The notes under the pieces: model-generated | What the model was told of the DNA's origin: nothing | What the model saw: the letters and a program-made list of their open reading frames with translations, nothing else | The model's database searches: none | Program-made: the position numbers and the translations under genes | Assembly (NCBI GenBank): GCA_029838195.1 | Contig: JALGVJ010000007.1 | Location: forward strand, 64,001-128,000 | Direction of reading: 5' to 3' | Origin: Promethearchaeota archaeon | Lineage (GTDB): Archaea > Asgardarchaeota > Lokiarchaeia > Sigyniarchaeales > SOKP01 | Length of the DNA: 64,000 nucleotides | Shown here: in pieces, positions 46,615 through 56,309 of the stretch | How the letters are laid out: each line of letters opens with the position of its first letter | Position numbering within the stretch: position 1 is the first letter of the stretch

Positions 46615-46968
46615 TTATTTTAATCGAAAACGATATTTATTATTGGCTGCTCTCGATAATCCAATATAATTGTCCGATATCTTATAATGCATTTCGCCTC
46701 CAATTATTTTTTTTTCCACGTAAGCATTAGTTATATCATGATTTAACGAGTGAAACATGGTTCCCAATGTTACCGGCCCTAAATAATTCCTCTCTCCCTT
46801 TTTCTTGGCAATTCTTACTAATTCTGTTTCAGAATGCCACGCACCATCTAATAATGCGAAAATTAAATCATTTTTTATATTGCTTTTTATATTTTTAAGT
46901 TTTTGAAATAAATTCGAATAATTTCCATCAATATTAGCATTTTCCTCTAAATTTTTAATATTTTCCAT
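46615..46968 (-). CDS. Small hypothetical protein, probable winged helix
   Basis: Helix - LDGAWHSETELVRIA - helix - YVEKKIIGGEMHYKIS beta-hairpin wing pattern; 117 aa. Confidence 0.7.
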   Translation of the reverse strand: MENIKNLEENANIDGNYSNLFQKLKNIKSNIKNDLIFALLDGAWHSETELVRIAKKKGERNYLGPVTLGTMFHSLNHDITNAYVEKKIIGGEMHYKISDNYIGLSRAANNKYRFRLK

Positions 46969-47111: not shown

Positions 47112-48260
47112 TTACTCTTTTACTAAATCTTCAGGTATTCCTTCATTATAATATTTAGATCTCGTAATCCACTTTTGCGCAAATTCCGGAAGGATGCTCA
47201 GAATGGAGCCGCCAATCCACACGGAAAAGGTACGCTCTCTAGGAGCAATGATTTTTAGATTTTGACTTAATTTTTTATCCCGCATCATTTTTAACTCTAA
47301 CTCTTGATAGAGCCGTGCTTTTAAATTCTGAAATAAAGAACCGCCCCCAGAAAGAAATATATTATTTAAAAGTTCCGGACGTAAATCTACATCGCATGAA
47401 TTAATAGCATCCATGATTGCAACATGAAGAGGAGGATCTTCCATTTGCATTAAAGAAGGATCAAATAATAATTCAGGAATCATGAATCGCTCTTTAGAGA
47501 GAGTAAAAATCGAACCATCGGGTAAAGAAAATTTCTTTTTGTATTGTTCACTACGTTTTAAATCTTGTTTAAAATCTAAAGAAACAAAACTTGCTTTTTC
47601 CTTGAGCACGCGCACCAGATCCCGTTGGATGGAAGAATCTACAGAAAGTCCAATCGTTTTTGAAAGAATATTTTCAGCATGGCGAGTAATGGCACGCCCT
47701 CCAACTTTTGAAATGCGAATCGAATGGGTGATTTTATAACTCTTGTAAATCGGAACGATTCGAGTACTGCTATCCCCAATTTCAACAACTAATCCCGTCT
47801 GAAAGCCACCAGAATATAACGTGAGTAAGGAATCTAACACCGGATAAAATGCCATGCACTGATATTTTTCCAAGAAAATTTCAAATAGTCTTTGGAGGTC
47901 ATTCTTGGGAAATAAAGGGTGAATCGCAAACAATATGTTAAACATCGTAGGATCGATTTTCAGGTTAAAAAAGATATAATCTAATAATAATTGGAAATGA
48001 TCCCAATTTGTAATTTTCCCATTATTAATGGGATAAGTGATTTTAAATAACCCTAAGGATTGAATTTCATCTCCTACATAATATTGTTGATTTTTGGAGC
48101 CATACTCTGCTTGAATATCATGATATTTTGGATGGCCAACAATAGAAGGAAACACTAATGAGGGAAAATCCTCAGCAGCAAAACCTGCCTTAGTAGAAAA
48201 TTGACCAATGTCCAATACGATAGTTAGGGTCGTCATGGTTTCATCACGATTTTCAATCAT
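47112..48260 (-). CDS. Eukaryote-type actin family protein (divergent Asgard actin-related protein)
   Basis: KAGFA.ED.P..VFPSIVG.P, YVGDE, YPI..G.ITNWD, LPDG, ERF..PELLF.P, CDVDLR, LSGG, IIAP.ER.FSVWIGGSIL are collinear with actin. Confidence 0.96.
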   Translation of the reverse strand: MIENRDETMTTLTIVLDIGQFSTKAGFAAEDFPSLVFPSIVGHPKYHDIQAEYGSKNQQYYVGDEIQSLGLFKITYPINNGKITNWDHFQLLLDYIFFNLKIDPTMFNILFAIHPLFPKNDLQRLFEIFLEKYQCMAFYPVLDSLLTLYSGGFQTGLVVEIGDSSTRIVPIYKSYKITHSIRISKVGGRAITRHAENILSKTIGLSVDSSIQRDLVRVLKEKASFVSLDFKQDLKRSEQYKKKFSLPDGSIFTLSKERFMIPELLFDPSLMQMEDPPLHVAIMDAINSCDVDLRPELLNNIFLSGGGSLFQNLKARLYQELELKMMRDKKLSQNLKIIAPRERTFSVWIGGSILSILPEFAQKWITRSKYYNEGIPEDLVKE

Positions 48261-48359: not shown

Positions 48360-49097
48360 CTAGATCAATAAAATTTTCAATGGAGTATATGTCGTTTCGG
48401 GAATATAAGCTTCGCCATATGCTTTGCCAATTTCATTCCCCCGCAAAATTGCTGTATCTTCTGCCCAATCTAAGACTCTTTCTAATACCTCCTTTTGAGA
48501 GACATAAACTTGATTAAAGATTTCCTTTTTTCGTTCCCAATATTGTTCGATATCCACGATTATAAAAACAGAGCTTTCTATATATTGGAATTTACAAGAG
48601 GGTGATTCATAATAATATACTCCAAACGGTTTCCAAGATCTTCCATGTCCTCCGTACGCTTTTCCCGTAGAACAATGATAAATGCTTTCTCGCACGATTA
48701 AAGATAAATTTCTATGAACTCTATGAAAATCCGTAAAATGGGGAATTAAAACCACTTGAGGTTTTCTCTCTCTAATTAAATTGGTAATTCTATCTATTTT
48801 ATTTCTATTAATTAACAAATCAGAATAACCTAATTCAACAATTTCAGTATTTAAAATATCAGACACCAATTTTAATTCACTTTCTCTTGTTTCAATGATG
48901 CTCTTTTGTTGATTTGATTTCGCATACCCTCCCAGTCCTGGAGTAGCAATTACAATGATAACTTCCGTACCGAGTGCTTGATATTTTAAAATTGTACCCC
49001 CACAGGAGATCAACTCGTCATCCGGATGTCCGGCAAAGATCATCATTTTTTTTGGGATTACAATGGGAATTTCCTCTTCACACATGATTGTGTTCAT
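48360..49097 (-). CDS. PIG-L/LmbE family N-acetylglucosaminyl deacetylase
   Basis: AGHPDDE..CGGT and DFHRVH metal motifs, SQ motif. Confidence 0.9.
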   Translation of the reverse strand: MNTIMCEEEIPIVIPKKMMIFAGHPDDELISCGGTILKYQALGTEVIIVIATPGLGGYAKSNQQKSIIETRESELKLVSDILNTEIVELGYSDLLINRNKIDRITNLIRERKPQVVLIPHFTDFHRVHRNLSLIVRESIYHCSTGKAYGGHGRSWKPFGVYYYESPSCKFQYIESSVFIIVDIEQYWERKKEIFNQVYVSQKEVLERVLDWAEDTAILRGNEIGKAYGEAYIPETTYTPLKILLI

Positions 49098-49336
49098 CGT
49101 TCCGAACCTCTTAAATGTTCAATCGTTTAATTTACTTCCAGAAAATTTTAGCAATTCAAGATCCAAGAAAGATAAAGTTTTTGAACCTTCTTGCCATGAG
49201 TATTATTAGGTAATCGTGAGGGAAAAAAAATTATAAGATTTAAATTTTTTACTTGGGTTTATCAATAGTTGATCGATACATTTTTAATTCCATTTGGAAT
49301 ATAAAAAAACTTTATCAAAAAAAAGAGGAACTTCTA

Positions 49337-50809
49337 ATGGCATTAATAAAAAATATAGATCAAGAAAAATTACGGGAGAATGCTATAAAGATACCGAAAC
49401 CTAGTGAGTTCAAGGAGCCTGCTAATATCACGGTTGAATTTTTATCCGTGGCCTTCACGCGCTTGATCGCGGCTGCTCTTTTCATCCTTTCTGGAATGAT
49501 TTCCTTATTAGTATTTGGACCAGGTGTGGGCCACCATCAAACGCGATATGGAAATGCGATATTCTTGGGTGGACCATCTTTTTTTTACGTGACAGGCTTG
49601 CCCGTGTTGATGATCGGAATAGGGTTATTGATTTATTTCATTTTTAGCATTTTCAAGGGAACATTCTCCAGCTCTGACCATTTTTTATATTTTCAAGAAA
49701 TACGCCCCCGCTTGCCCCGTTTTACAGAAGTTCCCAAAAATAAAATAGAAGCCTTAAGATTCCAGAATAATCAATTAGGGCCAAAATTAACGTGGATAAT
49801 CATTCTTACTCCCTTTATCGTACTTCAATTACTCACGGGAATACCGTTATTTACAGCAGAAAGAGCCGCACCCGCCCACGTGTTATCTTGGACTTTTCTC
49901 ATCATTTCCATTTTAGAAATCATGGCCGTGTATATTCTCGTCATGCATCCTCAAGCATATTTTGAATTCGCCAGCGATGAAAAATTGCATGAAATGTGGT
50001 TCGCTCCCAGGAAAATGGATGAATTGATGGGAAAATTTCAAGCTTTGTTTAATCTTTCAATACCTTCAAAAGAACAGGAAAACCGTCCGGAATTTGCTCC
50101 AATTAACGATACTCATATCAGCCTCTTCAGAGTCATCTTGGGAATTTTTTTAGTAGCCTCTACTTTAATCATGATGTTAGGAATGGTTCTATTCGGCTCT
50201 CTTTTCTGGTGGCTAGGATTAATCTATGGAGTTATATTACTTGTAAAAGCAAGATTTCACGATTTCAGTGATCCCCATACTGATAAATTTTTCTTCAATG
50301 AGCAAGAACGGATATTCAAGTTCTATAAAAAATTCAAGAATAAATTTCACTACATCCTTGCAACTGATGTTAATTCTGTAAAATTAACACGATGGTTTAG
50401 AAGATTAGATTTTTTTGACGTGGGACTCATTGGTGGAATGCTTGTCTCTCTCATATTCTTACAAGTCGAAGGATGGAAAATTGCAGATTCCACGATCGCC
50501 ATTCGGGATAATGTTATCAGCACTATTTACATGGGTATTTTAATCTTCTTATTATTCGTGTTTCTTTGCGTGCCCATTGATGTCGTCGAATTTAAAACGC
50601 CAACCATTACCTATCGAATAGAAACTACCCTCAAATCCAAGTCTAAAAAACATTTTCACCACTTCCTTGAAGATTTAAAAACGTTACATATCATGCTGAG
50701 AGAGCCTCAATTTAAAAGGACATTCCTTCTTCGAATCACCATCATTGGAATTCTCTTGCTAATAGGACTCAGTTGTAGCTTGATAGAGTTTGATTTTTAT
50801 CTATTTTAA
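49337..50809 (+). CDS. Hypothetical polytopic membrane protein with internally duplicated architecture
   Basis: About 8-9 TM segments alternating with beta-rich loops in two similar halves. ATG 49337 follows a GAGG RBS (the ORF track starts at TTG 49253). Confidence 0.7.
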   Translation: MALIKNIDQEKLRENAIKIPKPSEFKEPANITVEFLSVAFTRLIAAALFILSGMISLLVFGPGVGHHQTRYGNAIFLGGPSFFYVTGLPVLMIGIGLLIYFIFSIFKGTFSSSDHFLYFQEIRPRLPRFTEVPKNKIEALRFQNNQLGPKLTWIIILTPFIVLQLLTGIPLFTAERAAPAHVLSWTFLIISILEIMAVYILVMHPQAYFEFASDEKLHEMWFAPRKMDELMGKFQALFNLSIPSKEQENRPEFAPINDTHISLFRVILGIFLVASTLIMMLGMVLFGSLFWWLGLIYGVILLVKARFHDFSDPHTDKFFFNEQERIFKFYKKFKNKFHYILATDVNSVKLTRWFRRLDFFDVGLIGGMLVSLIFLQVEGWKIADSTIAIRDNVISTIYMGILIFLLFVFLCVPIDVVEFKTPTITYRIETTLKSKSKKHFHHFLEDLKTLHIMLREPQFKRTFLLRITIIGILLLIGLSCSLIEFDFYLF

Positions 50810-50845
50810 TTACAAATATTATAATTTGAAAATTGATACATCTAG

Positions 50846-52465
50846 GTGGAAGAATTGAGAATTAGAAAAAGAAAAACCTTACCAAGACGGAATGCGCTTG
50901 TGGTCGTTCTATTTTTCATCCCCGTTCTCTGCGTTTTATCCTATTTAGGACTGTTCATGTATATTTTATACGATATCTCTTCCTATAACCTCGAAATGCC
51001 CCCTCCTAAAACGGAATATTTCTACGATTTGAATGAAATTAATGAAAATACGCTAGATAAATTAGCCCATACCTATGAATATCAATTAAAATACCATCAT
51101 TCCCCGGCCTACATTCCTGTCGATGTAACCTTTAAGGATTCTACATATACTTCAATTGATTATTGGCACGGAACAGATAATGGGGCTTTACATCTTGGAT
51201 ATGCCCTCGCAGCCGAGTGCCACAGATATAAAGCCGCTTTAAGAGAAGGCGATATAGCTGAAGCTAATAGAGCCCTCATCATGGTAGAGCGATTTGTAAC
51301 CGGTTTTAGCTACATGCTAGCAGCGCCAAACGGAGGCATCGGTCCTGATTATCCAGGAACACCTGCCCGATTTGTTTGTTCTCCCGAAAACCGAAAGTAT
51401 CATCCATTCATTTTTGAAGAGCATCCTCGTCATTTCAATGGCACGGGAGAATATAAAGATTGGCGAGTGCGATTATATACGTCCCGGGATGAAATTGCCG
51501 GTTATTACTTGGGATTTGCTTCCGTATTGAGTTGCATTGATCCTGAACTAAACGAAGATAGTAAATGGTGCGTCGATAGGATAAAATTGTTGACAGCTCA
51601 ACTAATCGAAGGTTTCAAGAATACAAATTGGTTGGTCTTGGGAGGAGAAGGCGAGCCAGTGGGTTCTGATTTAAATACTTATCTCACGGGAAGCACGTGG
51701 CAATTGGCTCTCTTGAGAATCGGTGCCACTGCATATCCAGAAAAATATGAATCCTTATATCAATATTGTGCCGCAAAGACGTTATCAGCCAAAAACGCAA
51801 ATATGGGAAGTCTCAGTAACACCTTATACGATACATATGCTCTTGCCTTTAGCATGGACGTAATGTACTCATTAATAATTTTAGAAGATGATCCGGGTTT
51901 GCGATATTATTACATTAAGAGTTTTGAAAATGGTTTTTATAATTTCGTGCGATATCATCGAAATGCATATTTTAATATCATTCATCTCATTTTCATGGAA
52001 TTATTAAGTGAGTCCGAGCGAGTTGAATTTAATCACGAGGAATACAATGATGATATGGTAAGATGGGATGTTTTAGATCAATTGTGGCGATTTCAAGCCT
52101 CTGGATGGGATGATGGCGTGCGAAATTTAAATTTAAGGCGACGTCCTCATTCGACTCGTTGGAGCAGCGAGAATCCTGATATTCGGCGGATGGAGAAATT
52201 TCCAAGGAGAGATTATTGGGCGAATTTTTTCGAAAATAATAGCATCGGAAACATGTATTTGGGGATAAAAGACGAATTTGGGTTCGATAAAGAAATGTAT
52301 AAATATCCGCTAACCATATCGGAATGTGCTCCTCATTATTTTTTATGGGAGCATTCGAAATTTTTTGGAATGGGGGCAGATATTCATGGAAATGGTTTGA
52401 CGCAAGCAGTACCTACGTCGTTTTTAACGGTCTATTGGATGGCGCGAGCGTTTGATATCATTTAA
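50846..52465 (+). CDS. Membrane-anchored hypothetical protein, probable alpha-helical barrel enzyme
   Basis: Basic N-terminus plus a single TM, then an aromatic-rich soluble domain with DNGALHLG..LAA...RY and TSRDE..G motifs. Confidence 0.65.
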   Translation: MEELRIRKRKTLPRRNALVVVLFFIPVLCVLSYLGLFMYILYDISSYNLEMPPPKTEYFYDLNEINENTLDKLAHTYEYQLKYHHSPAYIPVDVTFKDSTYTSIDYWHGTDNGALHLGYALAAECHRYKAALREGDIAEANRALIMVERFVTGFSYMLAAPNGGIGPDYPGTPARFVCSPENRKYHPFIFEEHPRHFNGTGEYKDWRVRLYTSRDEIAGYYLGFASVLSCIDPELNEDSKWCVDRIKLLTAQLIEGFKNTNWLVLGGEGEPVGSDLNTYLTGSTWQLALLRIGATAYPEKYESLYQYCAAKTLSAKNANMGSLSNTLYDTYALAFSMDVMYSLIILEDDPGLRYYYIKSFENGFYNFVRYHRNAYFNIIHLIFMELLSESERVEFNHEEYNDDMVRWDVLDQLWRFQASGWDDGVRNLNLRRRPHSTRWSSENPDIRRMEKFPRRDYWANFFENNSIGNMYLGIKDEFGFDKEMYKYPLTISECAPHYFLWEHSKFFGMGADIHGNGLTQAVPTSFLTVYWMARAFDII

Positions 52466-52612
52466 AAAAAGAATTTAAAAAAACCTTAAATAACTTCCTT
52501 TTTTTTTCATTTTCATTTTCATTTTTTATAAATTTATAAGATTTTTGTAATAAAATTTTTAATTTTTCAAAAGTTTCCTTATTTAAATGAATAAATTTTA
52601 ATAGAAATTAAA

Positions 52613-54055
52613 TTGGATAAAAAAAATTTAATTTTAACTGCCAGTGGCATTCGGGGAATTGCTCATGAAAGTTTAACAATTGATTTTGTGAAAAAATTAG
52701 CATGGGCGTTCGGAACGTGGTTAAAGAATGAAGAAAAAACGGTCGTGATCGGAAGAGATACCAGGATTAGCGGAAAACCCTTTGAAGATGCCATTATTGA
52801 AGGGTTAACAATAGCACGATGTAAAATTATTAATTTAGGAATCTGCCCGACACCAATCATTATTTTTTCTAAGAATCAGTTAAATATAGCCGCAGGCATG
52901 ATAATCTCCGGATCTCACAATCCCCCAGAATGGAATGGAATAAAATTGCTTCATGGTTTTACTTTCATTGATGAAAATGAGTTAAATCAAATCATGAATT
53001 TAATGGAAAACCATTCATTAAATGCCAATTCGCTGGATTTAAAAAAAAAAGATAAATGGGTGGTGGAACATTATAATCCAATCCCAGAATACGTGCGTTG
53101 GTTATACTTGCATGTGGACGTGAATGAAATTAAGCAAAAAAATCACCTTAAAGTTGCCATTGATACCGGAGCTGGGGCAGGAAAACTTATCACCCCCCAA
53201 TTATTAACCGATTTAGGTTGCGAAGTAATCAAGATCAATAATGAATTCGTGAACGGTACCGAATTTCCCCGTAATCAAGAACCCATTGCTAAGAATCTTC
53301 AAGAATTGATCGTGAAGGTCATGACTGAAAAATGCGACGTTGGATTTGCCCATGATTGCGATGCTGATAGATTGGCGATAATTGGAGAGGATGGCACGTG
53401 GTACCCCGAAGATACGGGACTCGCCATTATTGCTAACCATTATTTAAAAAATTCTCAAGAACCTACAAGGAAAATCTTTGTTACAAATCTGGCCTCTTCT
53501 ATGATGTTTGATGTGATTGCAGAAAAATATGATGCTGAATTAATAAGAACTCCCGTTGGAGAAAGACATTTAGCCGCAAAAATGCAAGAATTATTGGATA
53601 AATACAAAAACGAGCCACACCCCATCTTGATTTTCGGAGGAGAAGGGTCGTGTGGAGGAATTATGTTTCCCCCTTTCAATAATGCCCGTGATGGAATCTT
53701 TGCCACCGCAAAACTAATTGAAATCTTGACTAAAACGGGTAAATCCATGACTGAACTCGTGTCCGAATTGCCTAAATTCTATTCCTATAGACAAGTTCTT
53801 GAAATAAATAGCACGAAAATCCACCAATTAATACACGAATTAAAAAGTGAGCTCGTGAAAGAAGGTGAAGATGTGTCTCAACATGGTCTCGATCTTCGCT
53901 TCGGAAAAGATAAAGAATGGTTCGTCCTTATCCATCCTTCTAATACCGAACCCGTGATTAGAGTGATTGCCGAGGCAAAAAGAGAATCACTTGCTCGATT
54001 ATATTGTGAAACCACCACGGAATTATTAAAAATAATTAATTCTCGTTTAAATTAG
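52613..54055 (+). CDS. Phosphohexomutase (phosphoglucosamine/phosphomannomutase)
   Basis: SGIRG, SGSHNPPEWNGIK phosphoserine loop, HDCDADR, GGEGS, PSNTEPVIRV. Confidence 0.94.
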   Translation: MDKKNLILTASGIRGIAHESLTIDFVKKLAWAFGTWLKNEEKTVVIGRDTRISGKPFEDAIIEGLTIARCKIINLGICPTPIIIFSKNQLNIAAGMIISGSHNPPEWNGIKLLHGFTFIDENELNQIMNLMENHSLNANSLDLKKKDKWVVEHYNPIPEYVRWLYLHVDVNEIKQKNHLKVAIDTGAGAGKLITPQLLTDLGCEVIKINNEFVNGTEFPRNQEPIAKNLQELIVKVMTEKCDVGFAHDCDADRLAIIGEDGTWYPEDTGLAIIANHYLKNSQEPTRKIFVTNLASSMMFDVIAEKYDAELIRTPVGERHLAAKMQELLDKYKNEPHPILIFGGEGSCGGIMFPPFNNARDGIFATAKLIEILTKTGKSMTELVSELPKFYSYRQVLEINSTKIHQLIHELKSELVKEGEDVSQHGLDLRFGKDKEWFVLIHPSNTEPVIRVIAEAKRESLARLYCETTTELLKIINSRLN

Positions 54056-54122: not shown

Positions 54123-54887
54123 TCATTCTCCTCTCATTATCTTTTTAAGACGATTCAATTCTTCTAACATTTCATCCCTTAAAGAACTTAAACTTCCTCC
54201 CGCTTGAGTTGCGCCGGGTGCTGGGGTTACTGCTCCCGGAGGTTTTACTCCTGGTGGGCCCACAGCGGGAGATTTTGGCGGTCCTGCTGAAGGGGGCTTA
54301 GGAGGACTCGTTGCGGAGGGGGCTGCCACGGGCGCCTTTGGAGGAGCTGAAACAGGTGATTTAGGTGGTGATGGTGCTGGTGGTCCTGCAGAAGGAGGCT
54401 TTGGTGGTCCTGCAGAAGGGGGCTTTGGTGGCCCTGCTGAAGGGGGCTTTGGTGGCCCTGCAGAAGGGGGCTTTGGTGGCCCTGCGGTTGGAGGTTTGGG
54501 AGGCCCCACAACGGGAGATTTTGGCGGTCCTGCTGAAGGAGGCATAGAAGGCCCTTCTTTTGAAGAGGGAGTTCCAAGTCCAGTAATGAGTGGATTACTT
54601 GAAGCTTTCGTAGCAGCTTCTCCACCTCCACTTAATAAATTAAAAAGAGTGCTTGCAGCTTTTGTTTTAGCTTCTTGAGGTGGTGCTAAGATTTGAGCCG
54701 AGGAGCTACTGACAGTCTGTACAGCTTCTTCAGCGGAGATACCTTTTAAATCTTTTTGAGCTTTATTTATGGATTCGATAAAGTCATTTATGTTTTTGAC
54801 AGTTTCTTCCAGATCATCAGCCAGTGAGCTAAGTCCTTTTTTTAGAAATGTTAGAACGCGATTAATTTTTTTTTTCTCAGAGACCAT
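54123..54887 (-). CDS. Coiled-coil / proline-repeat / C-terminal amphipathic helix protein (WH2-like tail)
   Basis: 254 aa ORF with GGAGG RBS: N-terminal heptad helix, (GPPKPPSA)n, C-terminus SLRDEMLEELNRLKKIMRGE. Confidence 0.85.
   Translation of the reverse strand: MVSEKKKINRVLTFLKKGLSSLADDLEETVKNINDFIESINKAQKDLKGISAEEAVQTVSSSSAQILAPPQEAKTKAASTLFNLLSGGGEAATKASSNPLITGLGTPSSKEGPSMPPSAGPPKSPVVGPPKPPTAGPPKPPSAGPPKPPSAGPPKPPSAGPPKPPSAGPPAPSPPKSPVSAPPKAPVAAPSATSPPKPPSAGPPKSPAVGPPGVKPPGAVTPAPGATQAGGSLSSLRDEMLEELNRLKKIMRGE
54379..54546. repeat. Coding 24-bp tandem repeat x7 (GPPKPPSA), with 2 further degenerate units at ~54253-54306
   Basis: Unit ggtggYcctgcWgaaggRggcttt; central units vary mainly at third codon positions of the minus-strand ORF. 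Confidence 0.92.
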
Positions 54888-55682
54888 GGTCGGTGCTTTC
54901 CTCCGATTGAACTTGAGACGTAATTAATATTAATATAATATTATAGAAATATAAATATTTCTTATTATACATGATATTCTTTTAGGTATTTAAACCATGA
55001 TAGTAAGAAAATTTTTGATATTTAATGTTTTTACTCCTGATTTTTAATGATTTAGAAAATATACCCCGCTCATGTTTTCAATAATATTTCTTAGGAATTT
55101 CCCTTATAGAACAGAATAAACCTAACGGGATTCTCTTAATTAAAATCATTGAGGTGAGAAAGAGTGAATTATAAATTTGATTTAATTACTTCATGCTTGG
55201 AAAAGAAAAGTGAAGTTCCCTATTTCATTCGTATTAGATTCTTAAAATAAATTTAAATTTGCTACACGCTTAATGATTCCATCAGGAATTAAAAAAAACA
55301 TTGCCTTTTTTAAAATTAATCATGGGGTTAAGAATTAAACATAAATAATTGGTAAAAAAAGTTAGACCATTATCTTTTACCCGGTTTATTGAGGATAAAA
55401 AATAAAGCAAATCAATATTCCATGAAGCGAGATTTATTAAAAGAAGAGATGGGGCCAATTTGAACAATTTGGGAAGAGCCTCATGCTAAAAAAGTTATAC
55501 TAAAGCAATTAAGTGATGGGTCATGAAAGCCAACGGGAAAACCAAGCCCATGCAAAATGAAAATAAGCATTTATGGAGGGTATTTAAGAATCTGAGAGAG
55601 CTCATACCTAAATATGGTTTAAATAAAAAGCATGCATGCGTGCGTAAAGCTATGGAATTTATCTTTAAATACCAAACGGCTC

Positions 55683-55832
55683 TTATTTGGTTCGATTTAG
55701 AGGCGTATTATATTTTTAAAGGGTTTTATGGTTATTTGGTTCGATTTAGAGGCGTATTGTATTTTTAAAGGGTTTTATGGTTATTTGGTTCGATTTAGAG
55801 GCGTATTGTATTTTTAAAGGGTTTTATGGTTA
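55683..55832. repeat. Intergenic 49-bp tandem repeat x3
   Basis: ttatttggttcgatttagaggcgtattRtatttttaaagggttttatgg at 55683, 55732 and 55781; one difference in the first copy; no spacers. Confidence 0.97.
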
Positions 55833-56045
55833 GAAGAAAATAAATTAATGAAGGAAATGAAACTTTATTTCCCATAAAATTTTTTAATTTTTGGTATAAC
55901 CAATAATTAATTTCAATTACTTTATTTCTAATAAATAATAAAAATAATAAAAATTACTAATATTATATCATTCAATTCAAATCGAATAAATTTTTTTAAG
56001 AAATAATCTTAAATTTTCTTAAGCATAAAAATAAATGTGAGAAAT

Positions 56046-56309
56046 ATGGCCAAGAAAGAACTGTTCATTAAAAGAGTATACGAGATAGTCAATGAATTAA
56101 AAATTCCATTAATAGATGAGCGCGTGTACGATAAAGTGGCATTTGGAGGAAATCCTATTGCAAGTATCGTCTTTAAATTTGAAGAAGATGAGTCCGTAAT
56201 TAGAGGTTTTTTAGGTTTAGCAGAATACTTTCATACGGTCGTAATAAAGAAAAAAGATGACTTCTTCATTCCTCATAATAACTTGATCTTTCGCTTGATT
56301 TCAGCTTAA
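56046..56309 (+). CDS. Small hypothetical protein
   Basis: Isolated ORF with globular composition (MAKKELFIKRVYEIV...); ATG 56046 preferred over GTG 56037. Confidence 0.75.
   Translation: MAKKELFIKRVYEIVNELKIPLIDERVYDKVAFGGNPIASIVFKFEEDESVIRGFLGLAEYFHTVVIKKKDDFFIPHNNLIFRLISA

Follow-up and report, generated by a model that had tools for sequence, protein, structure and literature searches.

We analyzed a 64,000-nucleotide stretch of DNA from a Promethearchaeota archaeon (GenBank assembly GCA_029838195.1, contig JALGVJ010000007.1, positions 64,001 to 128,000; hereafter the window) and focused on a protein of 254 amino acids (aa), here named the tether, which is encoded on its minus strand. 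The tether is a real and apparently undescribed protein that is present once per genome in most Asgard genomes. We consider it highly probable that it works by a mechanism in which an anchor, a flexible arm and a C-terminal docking helix (the tail) are combined. As the partner that is captured by the tail, we tentatively propose the actin system.

No closer relatives of eukaryotes are known than the Asgard archaea. To our knowledge, the actin regulators known in these organisms are essentially profilins and gelsolins, and there is no description of a membrane-actin linker, bundler or assembly factor. Asgard cells build actin-supported protrusions and crawl (bioRxiv 10.1101/2025.11.30.690169). 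The helix at the end of the tether is conserved more strictly than the active sites of most enzymes, and its partner, whichever it is, must have a central place in the biology of Asgard cells. The identity of this partner (actin, Vps4 or something new) would define either a new class of archaeal cytoskeletal adaptor or a new hub interaction.

Domain architecture of the tether protein

The tether gene and the modules of its product have the following coordinates in the window:

54123..54887, minus strand: tether gene, 254 aa, the soluble coiled-coil form of a pan-Asgard tail carrier (open reading frame and translation)
54744..54878, minus strand: N-terminal heptad helix, residues 4-48 (AlphaFold2 and near-invariant columns)
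54627..54719, minus strand: middle motif TVSTSSK ... AKT.AASTLF.LLSG, residues 57-87 (conservation profile)
54210..54560, minus strand: Pro-rich disordered arm, residues about 110-226, with GPPKPPSA-type units (AlphaFold2)
54378..54543, no strand assigned: 24-bp tandem DNA repeat, 6.9 copies, encoding the GPPKPPSA units (Tandem Repeats Finder)
54126..54203, minus strand: putative C-terminal docking module, residues 229-254, with a Gly-rich lead-in and the amphipathic helix 233-251

An earlier note, made from the letters of the window, had divided this open reading frame (ORF) into an N-terminal helix, GPPKPPSA repeats and a C-terminal helix. All three modules were confirmed by the translation and by an AlphaFold2 monomer model of the tether, which was built on a 106-sequence alignment. 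In the model, residues 4-48 form a single long helix with a predicted local distance difference test (pLDDT) score of about 97, and a regular a/d heptad spacing can be read from the sequence of this helix. We infer that it serves as an oligomerisation or anchor module. A weak short helix is modelled at residues 74-85, inside the middle motif, which is a candidate short amphipathic helix. The Pro-rich arm has low pLDDT scores (44-62) and no secondary structure. Its repeat unit is the eight-residue GPPKPPSA, which occurs in about 9-11 units including the degenerate flanking ones; the roughly nine repeats counted in the earlier note belong to an array that is real at the DNA level. Finally, the tail of the window protein, GGSLSSLRDEMLEELNRLKKIMRGE, is modelled as one uninterrupted helix over residues 233-251 (pLDDT 82-95).

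Pfam and NCBIfam scans of the tether and 25 diverse members of its family gave only non-significant helical noise (e.g. DUF948 with E-values of 0.005-0.06). No significant Pfam domain of any kind was found in these proteins.

Conservation of the tether family

A word-indexed search returned 185 homologues of about 200-260 aa. All homologues with a named source belong to Asgard archaea, which bears out a restriction of the family to this group. The full-length tether profile matches 117 of the 134 genomes of the window's own taxonomic family. A search of the ESM Atlas with the tether found only Asgard clusters of 'hypothetical proteins', and no description of the family was found in the searched literature. 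The modules are not a product of chance, because more than 180 homologues share both the N-terminal helix and the tail.

The N-terminal helix is strongly conserved across the homologues, with many invariant or near-invariant columns, and the last 25 residues are nearly identical among them (GGGL[SG]SLRDEML.EL.RLKKIMRG[DE]). Six tail residues, L236, E239, M240, E243, R246 and K248, are invariant when members from other classes are added (106-sequence and tail-only alignments). The arm varies among the homologues in both length and sequence. Two linker motifs, NLPPAPKLPP and PSFAKRP, are present in most homologues and degenerated in the window's copy. The expectation that only the N-terminal helix and the tail would be conserved holds for the strong conservation of both helices and for the variable linker; it fails for the middle motif, which is also conserved and in which L81 and L85 are invariant even with distant members included. 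The earlier note had overlooked this motif, as well as the degenerate state of the linker motifs in the window and the divergence of the nearby actin gene.

The tail as a portable module

Using a tail-only profile built from the last 30 residues, we identified tail carriers in 344 of 400 Asgard genomes (about 86%) and in 84 of the 90 high-quality ones (93%), as a rule one per genome. The window's genome also possesses a single carrier. Taxonomic families without the soluble form still have the tail, which was detected by the same profile in 30/31 genomes of family f13, 22/22 of f16 and 11/12 of f18 (f-numbers denote taxonomic families, and g76, mentioned below, is a genus). The profile finds no carrier in one small-genome class, f22-f25. 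An exhaustive HMMER scan of 1.84 billion representative sequences (E<=0.001) found the tail in 61 proteins; all matches with a named source are Asgard, and none of the sources is named as eukaryotic.

The front parts of the tail carriers are diverse. In the more distant classes, this helix is found at the end of proteins whose front parts are quite different and contain from 1 to ~10 transmembrane helices; in these membrane-type carriers, the transmembrane helices are followed by a coiled coil and then by a linker rich in Pro, Thr and Ser. Two or three tandem copies of the tail without a GTPase are found in P0130, P0163, P0165 and P0167. Another set of proteins (P0132, P0173, P0162 and P0169) combines a Ras/Roc-type GTPase domain, PPPPP runs, one or two tail motifs and a CxxC...CCxC module; these GTPase-tail-Cys-rich proteins look like an unexplored Asgard GTPase-effector architecture.

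Because the tail is near-invariant, portable and used in tandem, it is probably a docking peptide for a conserved globular partner. Comparison of the tail with the PDB chain sequences, both as a single sequence and as a profile, gave nothing significant, and the best matches are generic coiled coils (for the profile, the end of the GCN4 zipper, the streptococcal M protein and the DC-SIGNR neck).

Two of the carrier types show further peculiarities. P0154, encoded on a 2.2-kb Logan contig, contains a transmembrane helix, a complete soluble-type tether and a C-terminal TIR domain (PF13676, E 6e-18); this fusion may be real, or else may represent a read-through or an assembly artefact. Membrane-anchored carriers from three families (loci L059, L060 and L061) adjoin a gene of ~230 aa with a GxGSGST motif, which by eye looks like ribose-5-phosphate isomerase A (rpiA). 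The latter adjacency points to a separate, old synteny and provides no functional clue.

Genomic context of the tether gene

The neighbourhood of the tether gene in the window includes the following features:

47112..48260, minus strand: divergent actin paralogue, similar to actin-related proteins (ARP-like; PF00022, E 9e-90)
48360..49097, minus strand: PIG-L family deacetylase gene (Pfam and synteny)
46615..46968, minus strand: 117-aa gene after the actin paralogue (synteny in 23/23 loci, without a Pfam family)
49253..54055, plus strand: three-gene insertion encoding a 518-aa and a 539-aa protein without Pfam families and a PGM/PMM enzyme
56046..56309, plus strand: small90, encoding an 87-aa alpha/beta protein (neighbour conserved across classes)

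Gene order was determined by local BLAST on loci fetched around the tether gene. The order small90, tether, (PIG-L), ARP-like actin, 117-aa gene is found in all 23 sampled genomes of the window's family. Within this family, the tether and the actin paralogue are located on the same strand, with the actin gene downstream and gaps of 90-430 bp, and the PIG-L gene is placed between them in about half of the related genomes. The genes at 49253-54055 occur at that position in the window's genome only, where they split the tether gene from PIG-L and actin, and a different insertion of about 4.4 kb is found at the same place in locus L044. The distance between the tether and actin genes, 5.9 kb in the window (the ~6 kb of the earlier note) and similar in L044, is thus explained by insertions. 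The 4.5-Mb assembly of the window's genome contains four actin-family loci, and the actin of the window shares only 36% identity with the best one among them (on contig C91); it is therefore a divergent paralogue. The 117-aa gene could belong functionally to the actin paralogue; that its product is winged-helix-like is only a reading of the sequence by us.

The most deeply conserved neighbour of the tether gene is small90, which adjoins it in families f1, f5, f7, f19 and f27. The family-level distribution of small90 is almost equal to that of the soluble tether form. Genomes with small90 were predicted to carry the soluble form. This was so in three of the four determinable cases (f26, f20 and, conversely, f12) but not in genus g76, in which small90 occurs together with a membrane-type carrier. 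The AlphaFold2 model of small90 has an alpha-beta-beta-alpha-beta-beta-beta fold (pLDDT 88, predicted template modelling score 0.80). Comparison with the PDB revealed no usable structural relative: Foldseek gave nothing at E<=0.001, and the best Z-score in a wide VIA-align search was 4.5. As for the tether, the ESM Atlas search with small90 found only Asgard 'hypothetical protein' clusters.

Several small90 genes have unusual reading frames. In five loci from one genus (L033, L035, L036, L051 and L052), the sequence I-PKRELF stands at the conserved N-terminus of small90 and is preceded by no in-frame ATG, GTG or TTG, which suggests an ATT, ATA or ATC start codon. In two other loci (L041:9020-9313 and L049:7412-7705), a 30-nt in-frame insertion after codon 8 codes for IGLTSR*[AV]CE, including a stop codon; the insertion could be a mini-intron or a small mobile insertion, or could mark a pseudogene. 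The N-terminus of small90 is disrupted in L040 too.

The gap between the tether gene and small90 (54888-56045) is about 1.16 kb long in the window as against about 0.3 kb in relatives, and contains only short ORFs of 61 and 81 aa without a Pfam family. Rfam gave no match in this long gap upstream of the tether gene, and promoter and terminator scans gave nothing above the shuffled background.

Proposed mechanism and candidate partners

We propose that the 45-residue N-terminal heptad helix oligomerises or docks the tether, that the Pro-rich arm, with a predicted length of roughly 100 or more disordered residues, would act as a flexible spacer, and that the 19-residue amphipathic helix at the C-terminus, with its core L..EM..E..R.K, would capture a conserved cytosolic partner. 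Since most other Asgard classes have the same tail on a coiled-coil protein that is anchored in the membrane, the ancestral job of the family would be to hold this partner near a surface. The likeliest partner, in our view, would be the actin system, namely the Lokiactin filaments and, in the window's family, the adjacent ARP-like paralogue. The role of the soluble oligomers would then be to bundle or cross-link filaments, or else to sequester or deliver subunits, and that of the membrane forms to link actin to the membrane. Such a protein would work like arcadin-2, or like the F-actin-binding (FAB) segment of Ena/VASP combined with its coiled coil, and not like a canonical WH2 factor. We are confident in the anchor-arm-docking-helix mechanism in general; the whole statement, with the actin system as the partner, is tentative and in our estimate stands somewhat below even chances.

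Several observations speak for actin. Portability, tandem use and the poly-Pro and GTPase fusions of the tail fit what is typical of actin regulators. The actin adjacency in 23/23 loci of the window's family keeps the idea of an actin-cytoskeleton factor, brought up in the earlier note, viable, as does a resemblance to VASP; the accompanying WH2/WASP assignment fails (see below). The FAB segment of VASP (PMC10340426) aligns by eye without gaps to L236-M251 of the tether, with 6 of 16 residues identical, and the identities include four of the six invariant tail residues (L, E, M and R); a Gly-rich lead-in is present in both. This resemblance concerns a short motif, was noticed post hoc and by eye, and has an estimated p of roughly 0.05 after the choice of motif is taken into account, which limits its weight. 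Further points in favour of actin are the design shared with arcadin-2 (see below), the presence of a Pro-rich region, FAB and a coiled coil together in Ena/VASP, and the lack of ESCRT-III genes in 50 neighbourhood loci.

The points against actin include the absence of a PF02205 match and the fact that the best PDB matches of the tail are generic coiled coils, with actin-binding peptides absent. Actin adjacency is confined to one taxonomic family, being absent in f3, f4, f5, f7, f19 and f27 as well as in the membrane-type lineages. In f3, the paralogue (47-48% identity) is located 43-272 kb from the tether gene, and in f7, f19 and f27, which have the tether, only ordinary actins were found and the paralogue seems absent. 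Moreover, the synteny within the window's family extends over a block of ~10 kb, so common descent may account for part of the adjacency. Actin is also present in 13 of 14 genomes of the class that has no tail. Turning to published data, the preprint on Lokiactin co-immunoprecipitation (co-IP) lists as associated proteins profilins, gelsolins, an Arf GTPase and BAR proteins. A weak point is that the accessible part of its table has no entry with any mass predicted for the Lokiarchaeum ossiferum orthologue (P0122, identity unconfirmed, at about 729.4-730.2 kb of the chromosome), the table using private tags among which the orthologue was interpolated from anchor genes near tag 00588. The deposited L. 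ossiferum orthologue was not found by exact look-ups (four start codons) or by homology search.

According to the earlier note, the tether might be a WH2-bearing factor that promotes nucleation or elongation, its arm recruiting profilin-actin and its tail binding the barbed-end cleft of G-actin. The order of the modules indeed resembles that of WASP/WAVE/VASP-like factors, an actin paralogue is encoded nearby, and the tail has L-K-K-I after its amphipathic helix, much as WH2 (PF02205; thymosin-beta4/WASP) has a short amphipathic helix and then a Leu-basic-basic tetrad. In addition, relatives of the tether sometimes carry the tail in tandem and beside Pro-rich tracts, and some distant carriers join PPPPP runs, tandem motifs and a small GTPase domain. 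However, PF02205 gave no match at E<=10 in the window protein or in 25 diverse members, which, as the HMMER filters drop very weak matches, excludes a recognisable match only. Across 12 lineages, the tetrad is L/I-K-x-[ILF] (LKKI, LKSI, IKEI, LKKL, LKAL, LKRL, LKEI and LKKF) and not LKK[TV]: K248 alone is invariant and L247 nearly so, the second basic residue is variable, and the fourth residue is I, L or F and never T or V. The linker between the helix and the tetrad consists of N245 and R246 only (between L244 and L247), without indels in any lineage, whereas the WH2 linker has four or more residues. AlphaFold2 runs one continuous helix through this region, in a monomer model that cannot show the bound state, and a thymosin-type register would put the hydrophobic WH2 positions on invariant glutamates. 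Neither WH2 or thymosin peptides nor any actin-binding peptide are found among the PDB sequence matches of the tail. By its hidden Markov model (HMM) comparison, tetrad, spacing and predicted helix, the tail as a recognisable member of the WH2 family is largely refuted. The published Asgard 'WH2-like' motifs are tetrads within gelsolins (PMC9433394; bioRxiv 10.1101/2025.11.30.690169). The profilin part of the proposal is weak as well. The arm has PP pairs without long proline runs, and the Loki and Odin profilins are reported not to bind polyproline, with weak binding by a Heimdall and a Thor profilin (PMC8410842); profilin recruitment is therefore unsupported in the window's lineage. Taken as a whole, a canonical WH2 factor seems to us very unlikely.

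The alternative offered in the same note, a MIM-like or oligomerisation helix, is a candidate reading as well: the tail shares its register with ESCRT-IIIB and has zippers as its best PDB matches, but differs from the MIM1 consensus at charged positions. In the more specific form of this alternative, the tail would be a MIM1-type motif for Vps4's MIT domain, and the tether would recruit or regulate this ESCRT ATPase, at membranes when in a transmembrane form and elsewhere when soluble, with LPPAPKLPP as a MIM2-like second site. Like MIM1 of the Vps2/CHMP1-3-class ESCRT-III proteins, the tail is a Leu-rich amphipathic helix that follows a flexible linker at the C-terminus, and its C-terminal position behind a Pro-rich linker is that seen in IST1 and CHMPs. 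Both ESCRT-III (Snf7) proteins of the window's genome, which are encoded on other contigs than the tether, end in helices of the same register, one of them with the identical core ELNRLK. Seven positions are common to the ESCRT-IIIB tails and the family tails of six lineages ([DE] at -8, hydrophobic at -7, E at -4, hydrophobic at -3, [RK] at -1, L at 0 and K at +1). Exactly this stretch is aligned by hhalign (probability 31-36%, P 4-5e-4), and the score is reached in 0 of 300 column shuffles, a control that overstates specificity since column shuffling destroys helical periodicity. A count of the register among the C-terminal ends of the proteome was circular, the motif having been defined from three of the counted proteins, and was not used as evidence. 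In Asgard archaea, the tails of Vps2/24/46 are taken to be MIM1-like and those of Vps20/32/60 to be Pro-rich and MIM2-like (PMC7240154). With respect to the eukaryotic MIM1 consensus (D/E)xxLxxRLxxL(K/R), the hydrophobic register and the final basic residue of the tail fit, but the Arg is exchanged for E and the first acidic residue for Arg or Lys. Furthermore, an ESCRT-III tail is only the ninth-best proteome-wide match to the tail HMM (6.4 bits), and the shared half of the motif also matches generic zippers. Co-variation between lineages was not seen: the ESCRT-IIIB tail of f31 loses R at -1 and K at +1, whereas the family-type tail keeps both. Tandem and internal copies would be unusual for MIMs, no ESCRT-III gene is present in 50 neighbourhood loci totalling 700 kb, and the tether has no Snf7 core (no PF03357 match). 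Phyletic patterns fail to separate the partners, as ESCRT-III (263/268) and actin are both near-universal; Snf7 is present in 8 of the 14 genomes of the class without the tail. On balance, we consider a Vps4 hook unlikely. The tail could also pair in a zipper-like manner with some other conserved Asgard protein, neither actin nor Vps4, a reading that we rate as almost as likely as actin; candidates may include small90, a small-GTPase-associated module and the tether's own N-terminal helix (in head-to-tail assembly or autoinhibition). The PDB sequences closest to the tail are classical coiled coils, and the EL.RLKK half may accordingly be a generic helix-pairing sequence; the hydrophobic stripe spans all 19 residues of one continuous predicted helix; small90 adjoins the tether across classes, with a phyletic pattern near-identical to that of the soluble form and a prediction that mostly held; and the tail motif is fused to Ras/Roc GTPase and Cys-rich modules. 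At the same time, 19 residues are short for an autonomous coiled coil, and the charged residues E239, E243, R246 and K248, invariant across deep divergence, point to a specific receptor. The membrane-type carriers are devoid of the N-terminal helix and mostly of small90 and still have an unchanged tail, so neither of the two is a universal partner. Genus g76 pairs small90 with a membrane-type carrier, and small90 lacks a recognisable fold relative from which a binding mode could be guessed.

Returning to actin as the partner, a more far-reaching version can be formulated. The tail may be an ancestral actin-binding helix, FAB-like or groove-binding, that predates Ena/VASP and WH2. The tether would then be the missing Asgard linker, which in most classes would be anchored in the membrane and connect Lokiactin filaments to it, and in Lokiarchaeia-type lineages would be oligomeric and bundle these filaments; the GTPase-fused tandem versions would be primitive GTPase-controlled assembly factors. 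We offer this scenario as a speculation that is rather more likely to be wrong than right.

Comparison with known cytoskeletal systems

The closest parallel in design is arcadin-2 of Pyrobaculum (PDB 5LY3, PMC5173319), an archaeal protein of ~200 aa. Its N-terminal part is structured, its linker is unstructured and not conserved, and its C-terminal helix is small and conserved. This helix alone binds the hydrophobic groove of crenactin at 31 nM (PMC5173319). The tether has the same architecture of core, non-conserved linker and conserved C-terminal helix, and its activity would likewise be borne by the helix. The arcadin-2 gene is located beside an actin-family gene; for the tether gene, such linkage is seen in 23/23 loci of the window's family and in none of f3, f4, f5, f7, f19, f27 or the membrane-type lineages. 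The two proteins are compared by design only: the helix of arcadin-2 depends on a tryptophan, the protein is from Thermoproteales, and the actin adjacency of the tether is limited to one family, while its tail is also found on membrane proteins and in GTPase fusions.

Ena/VASP proteins resemble the tether in combining a coiled coil with a Pro-rich region and a short amphipathic helix led by Gly. However, the order of these elements is permuted, the coiled coil of the tether being N-terminal and not, like the tetramerising one of Ena/VASP, C-terminal. The tether also has neither an EVH1 domain nor a G-actin-binding (GAB)/WH2 site, and its arm contains PP pairs and not long proline runs.

The design principle of the tether is also that of ZipA-type membrane tethers of cytoskeletal filaments. 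Both ZipA and the ParR-ParM pair are bacterial systems, with sequences unrelated to the tether. By analogy only, ParR-ParM likewise has a small terminal element that catches a filament-forming protein and is joined to an anchor by a long disordered linker; in this pair, the C-terminal helix of ParR binds a hydrophobic groove of ParM (cited in PMC5173319).

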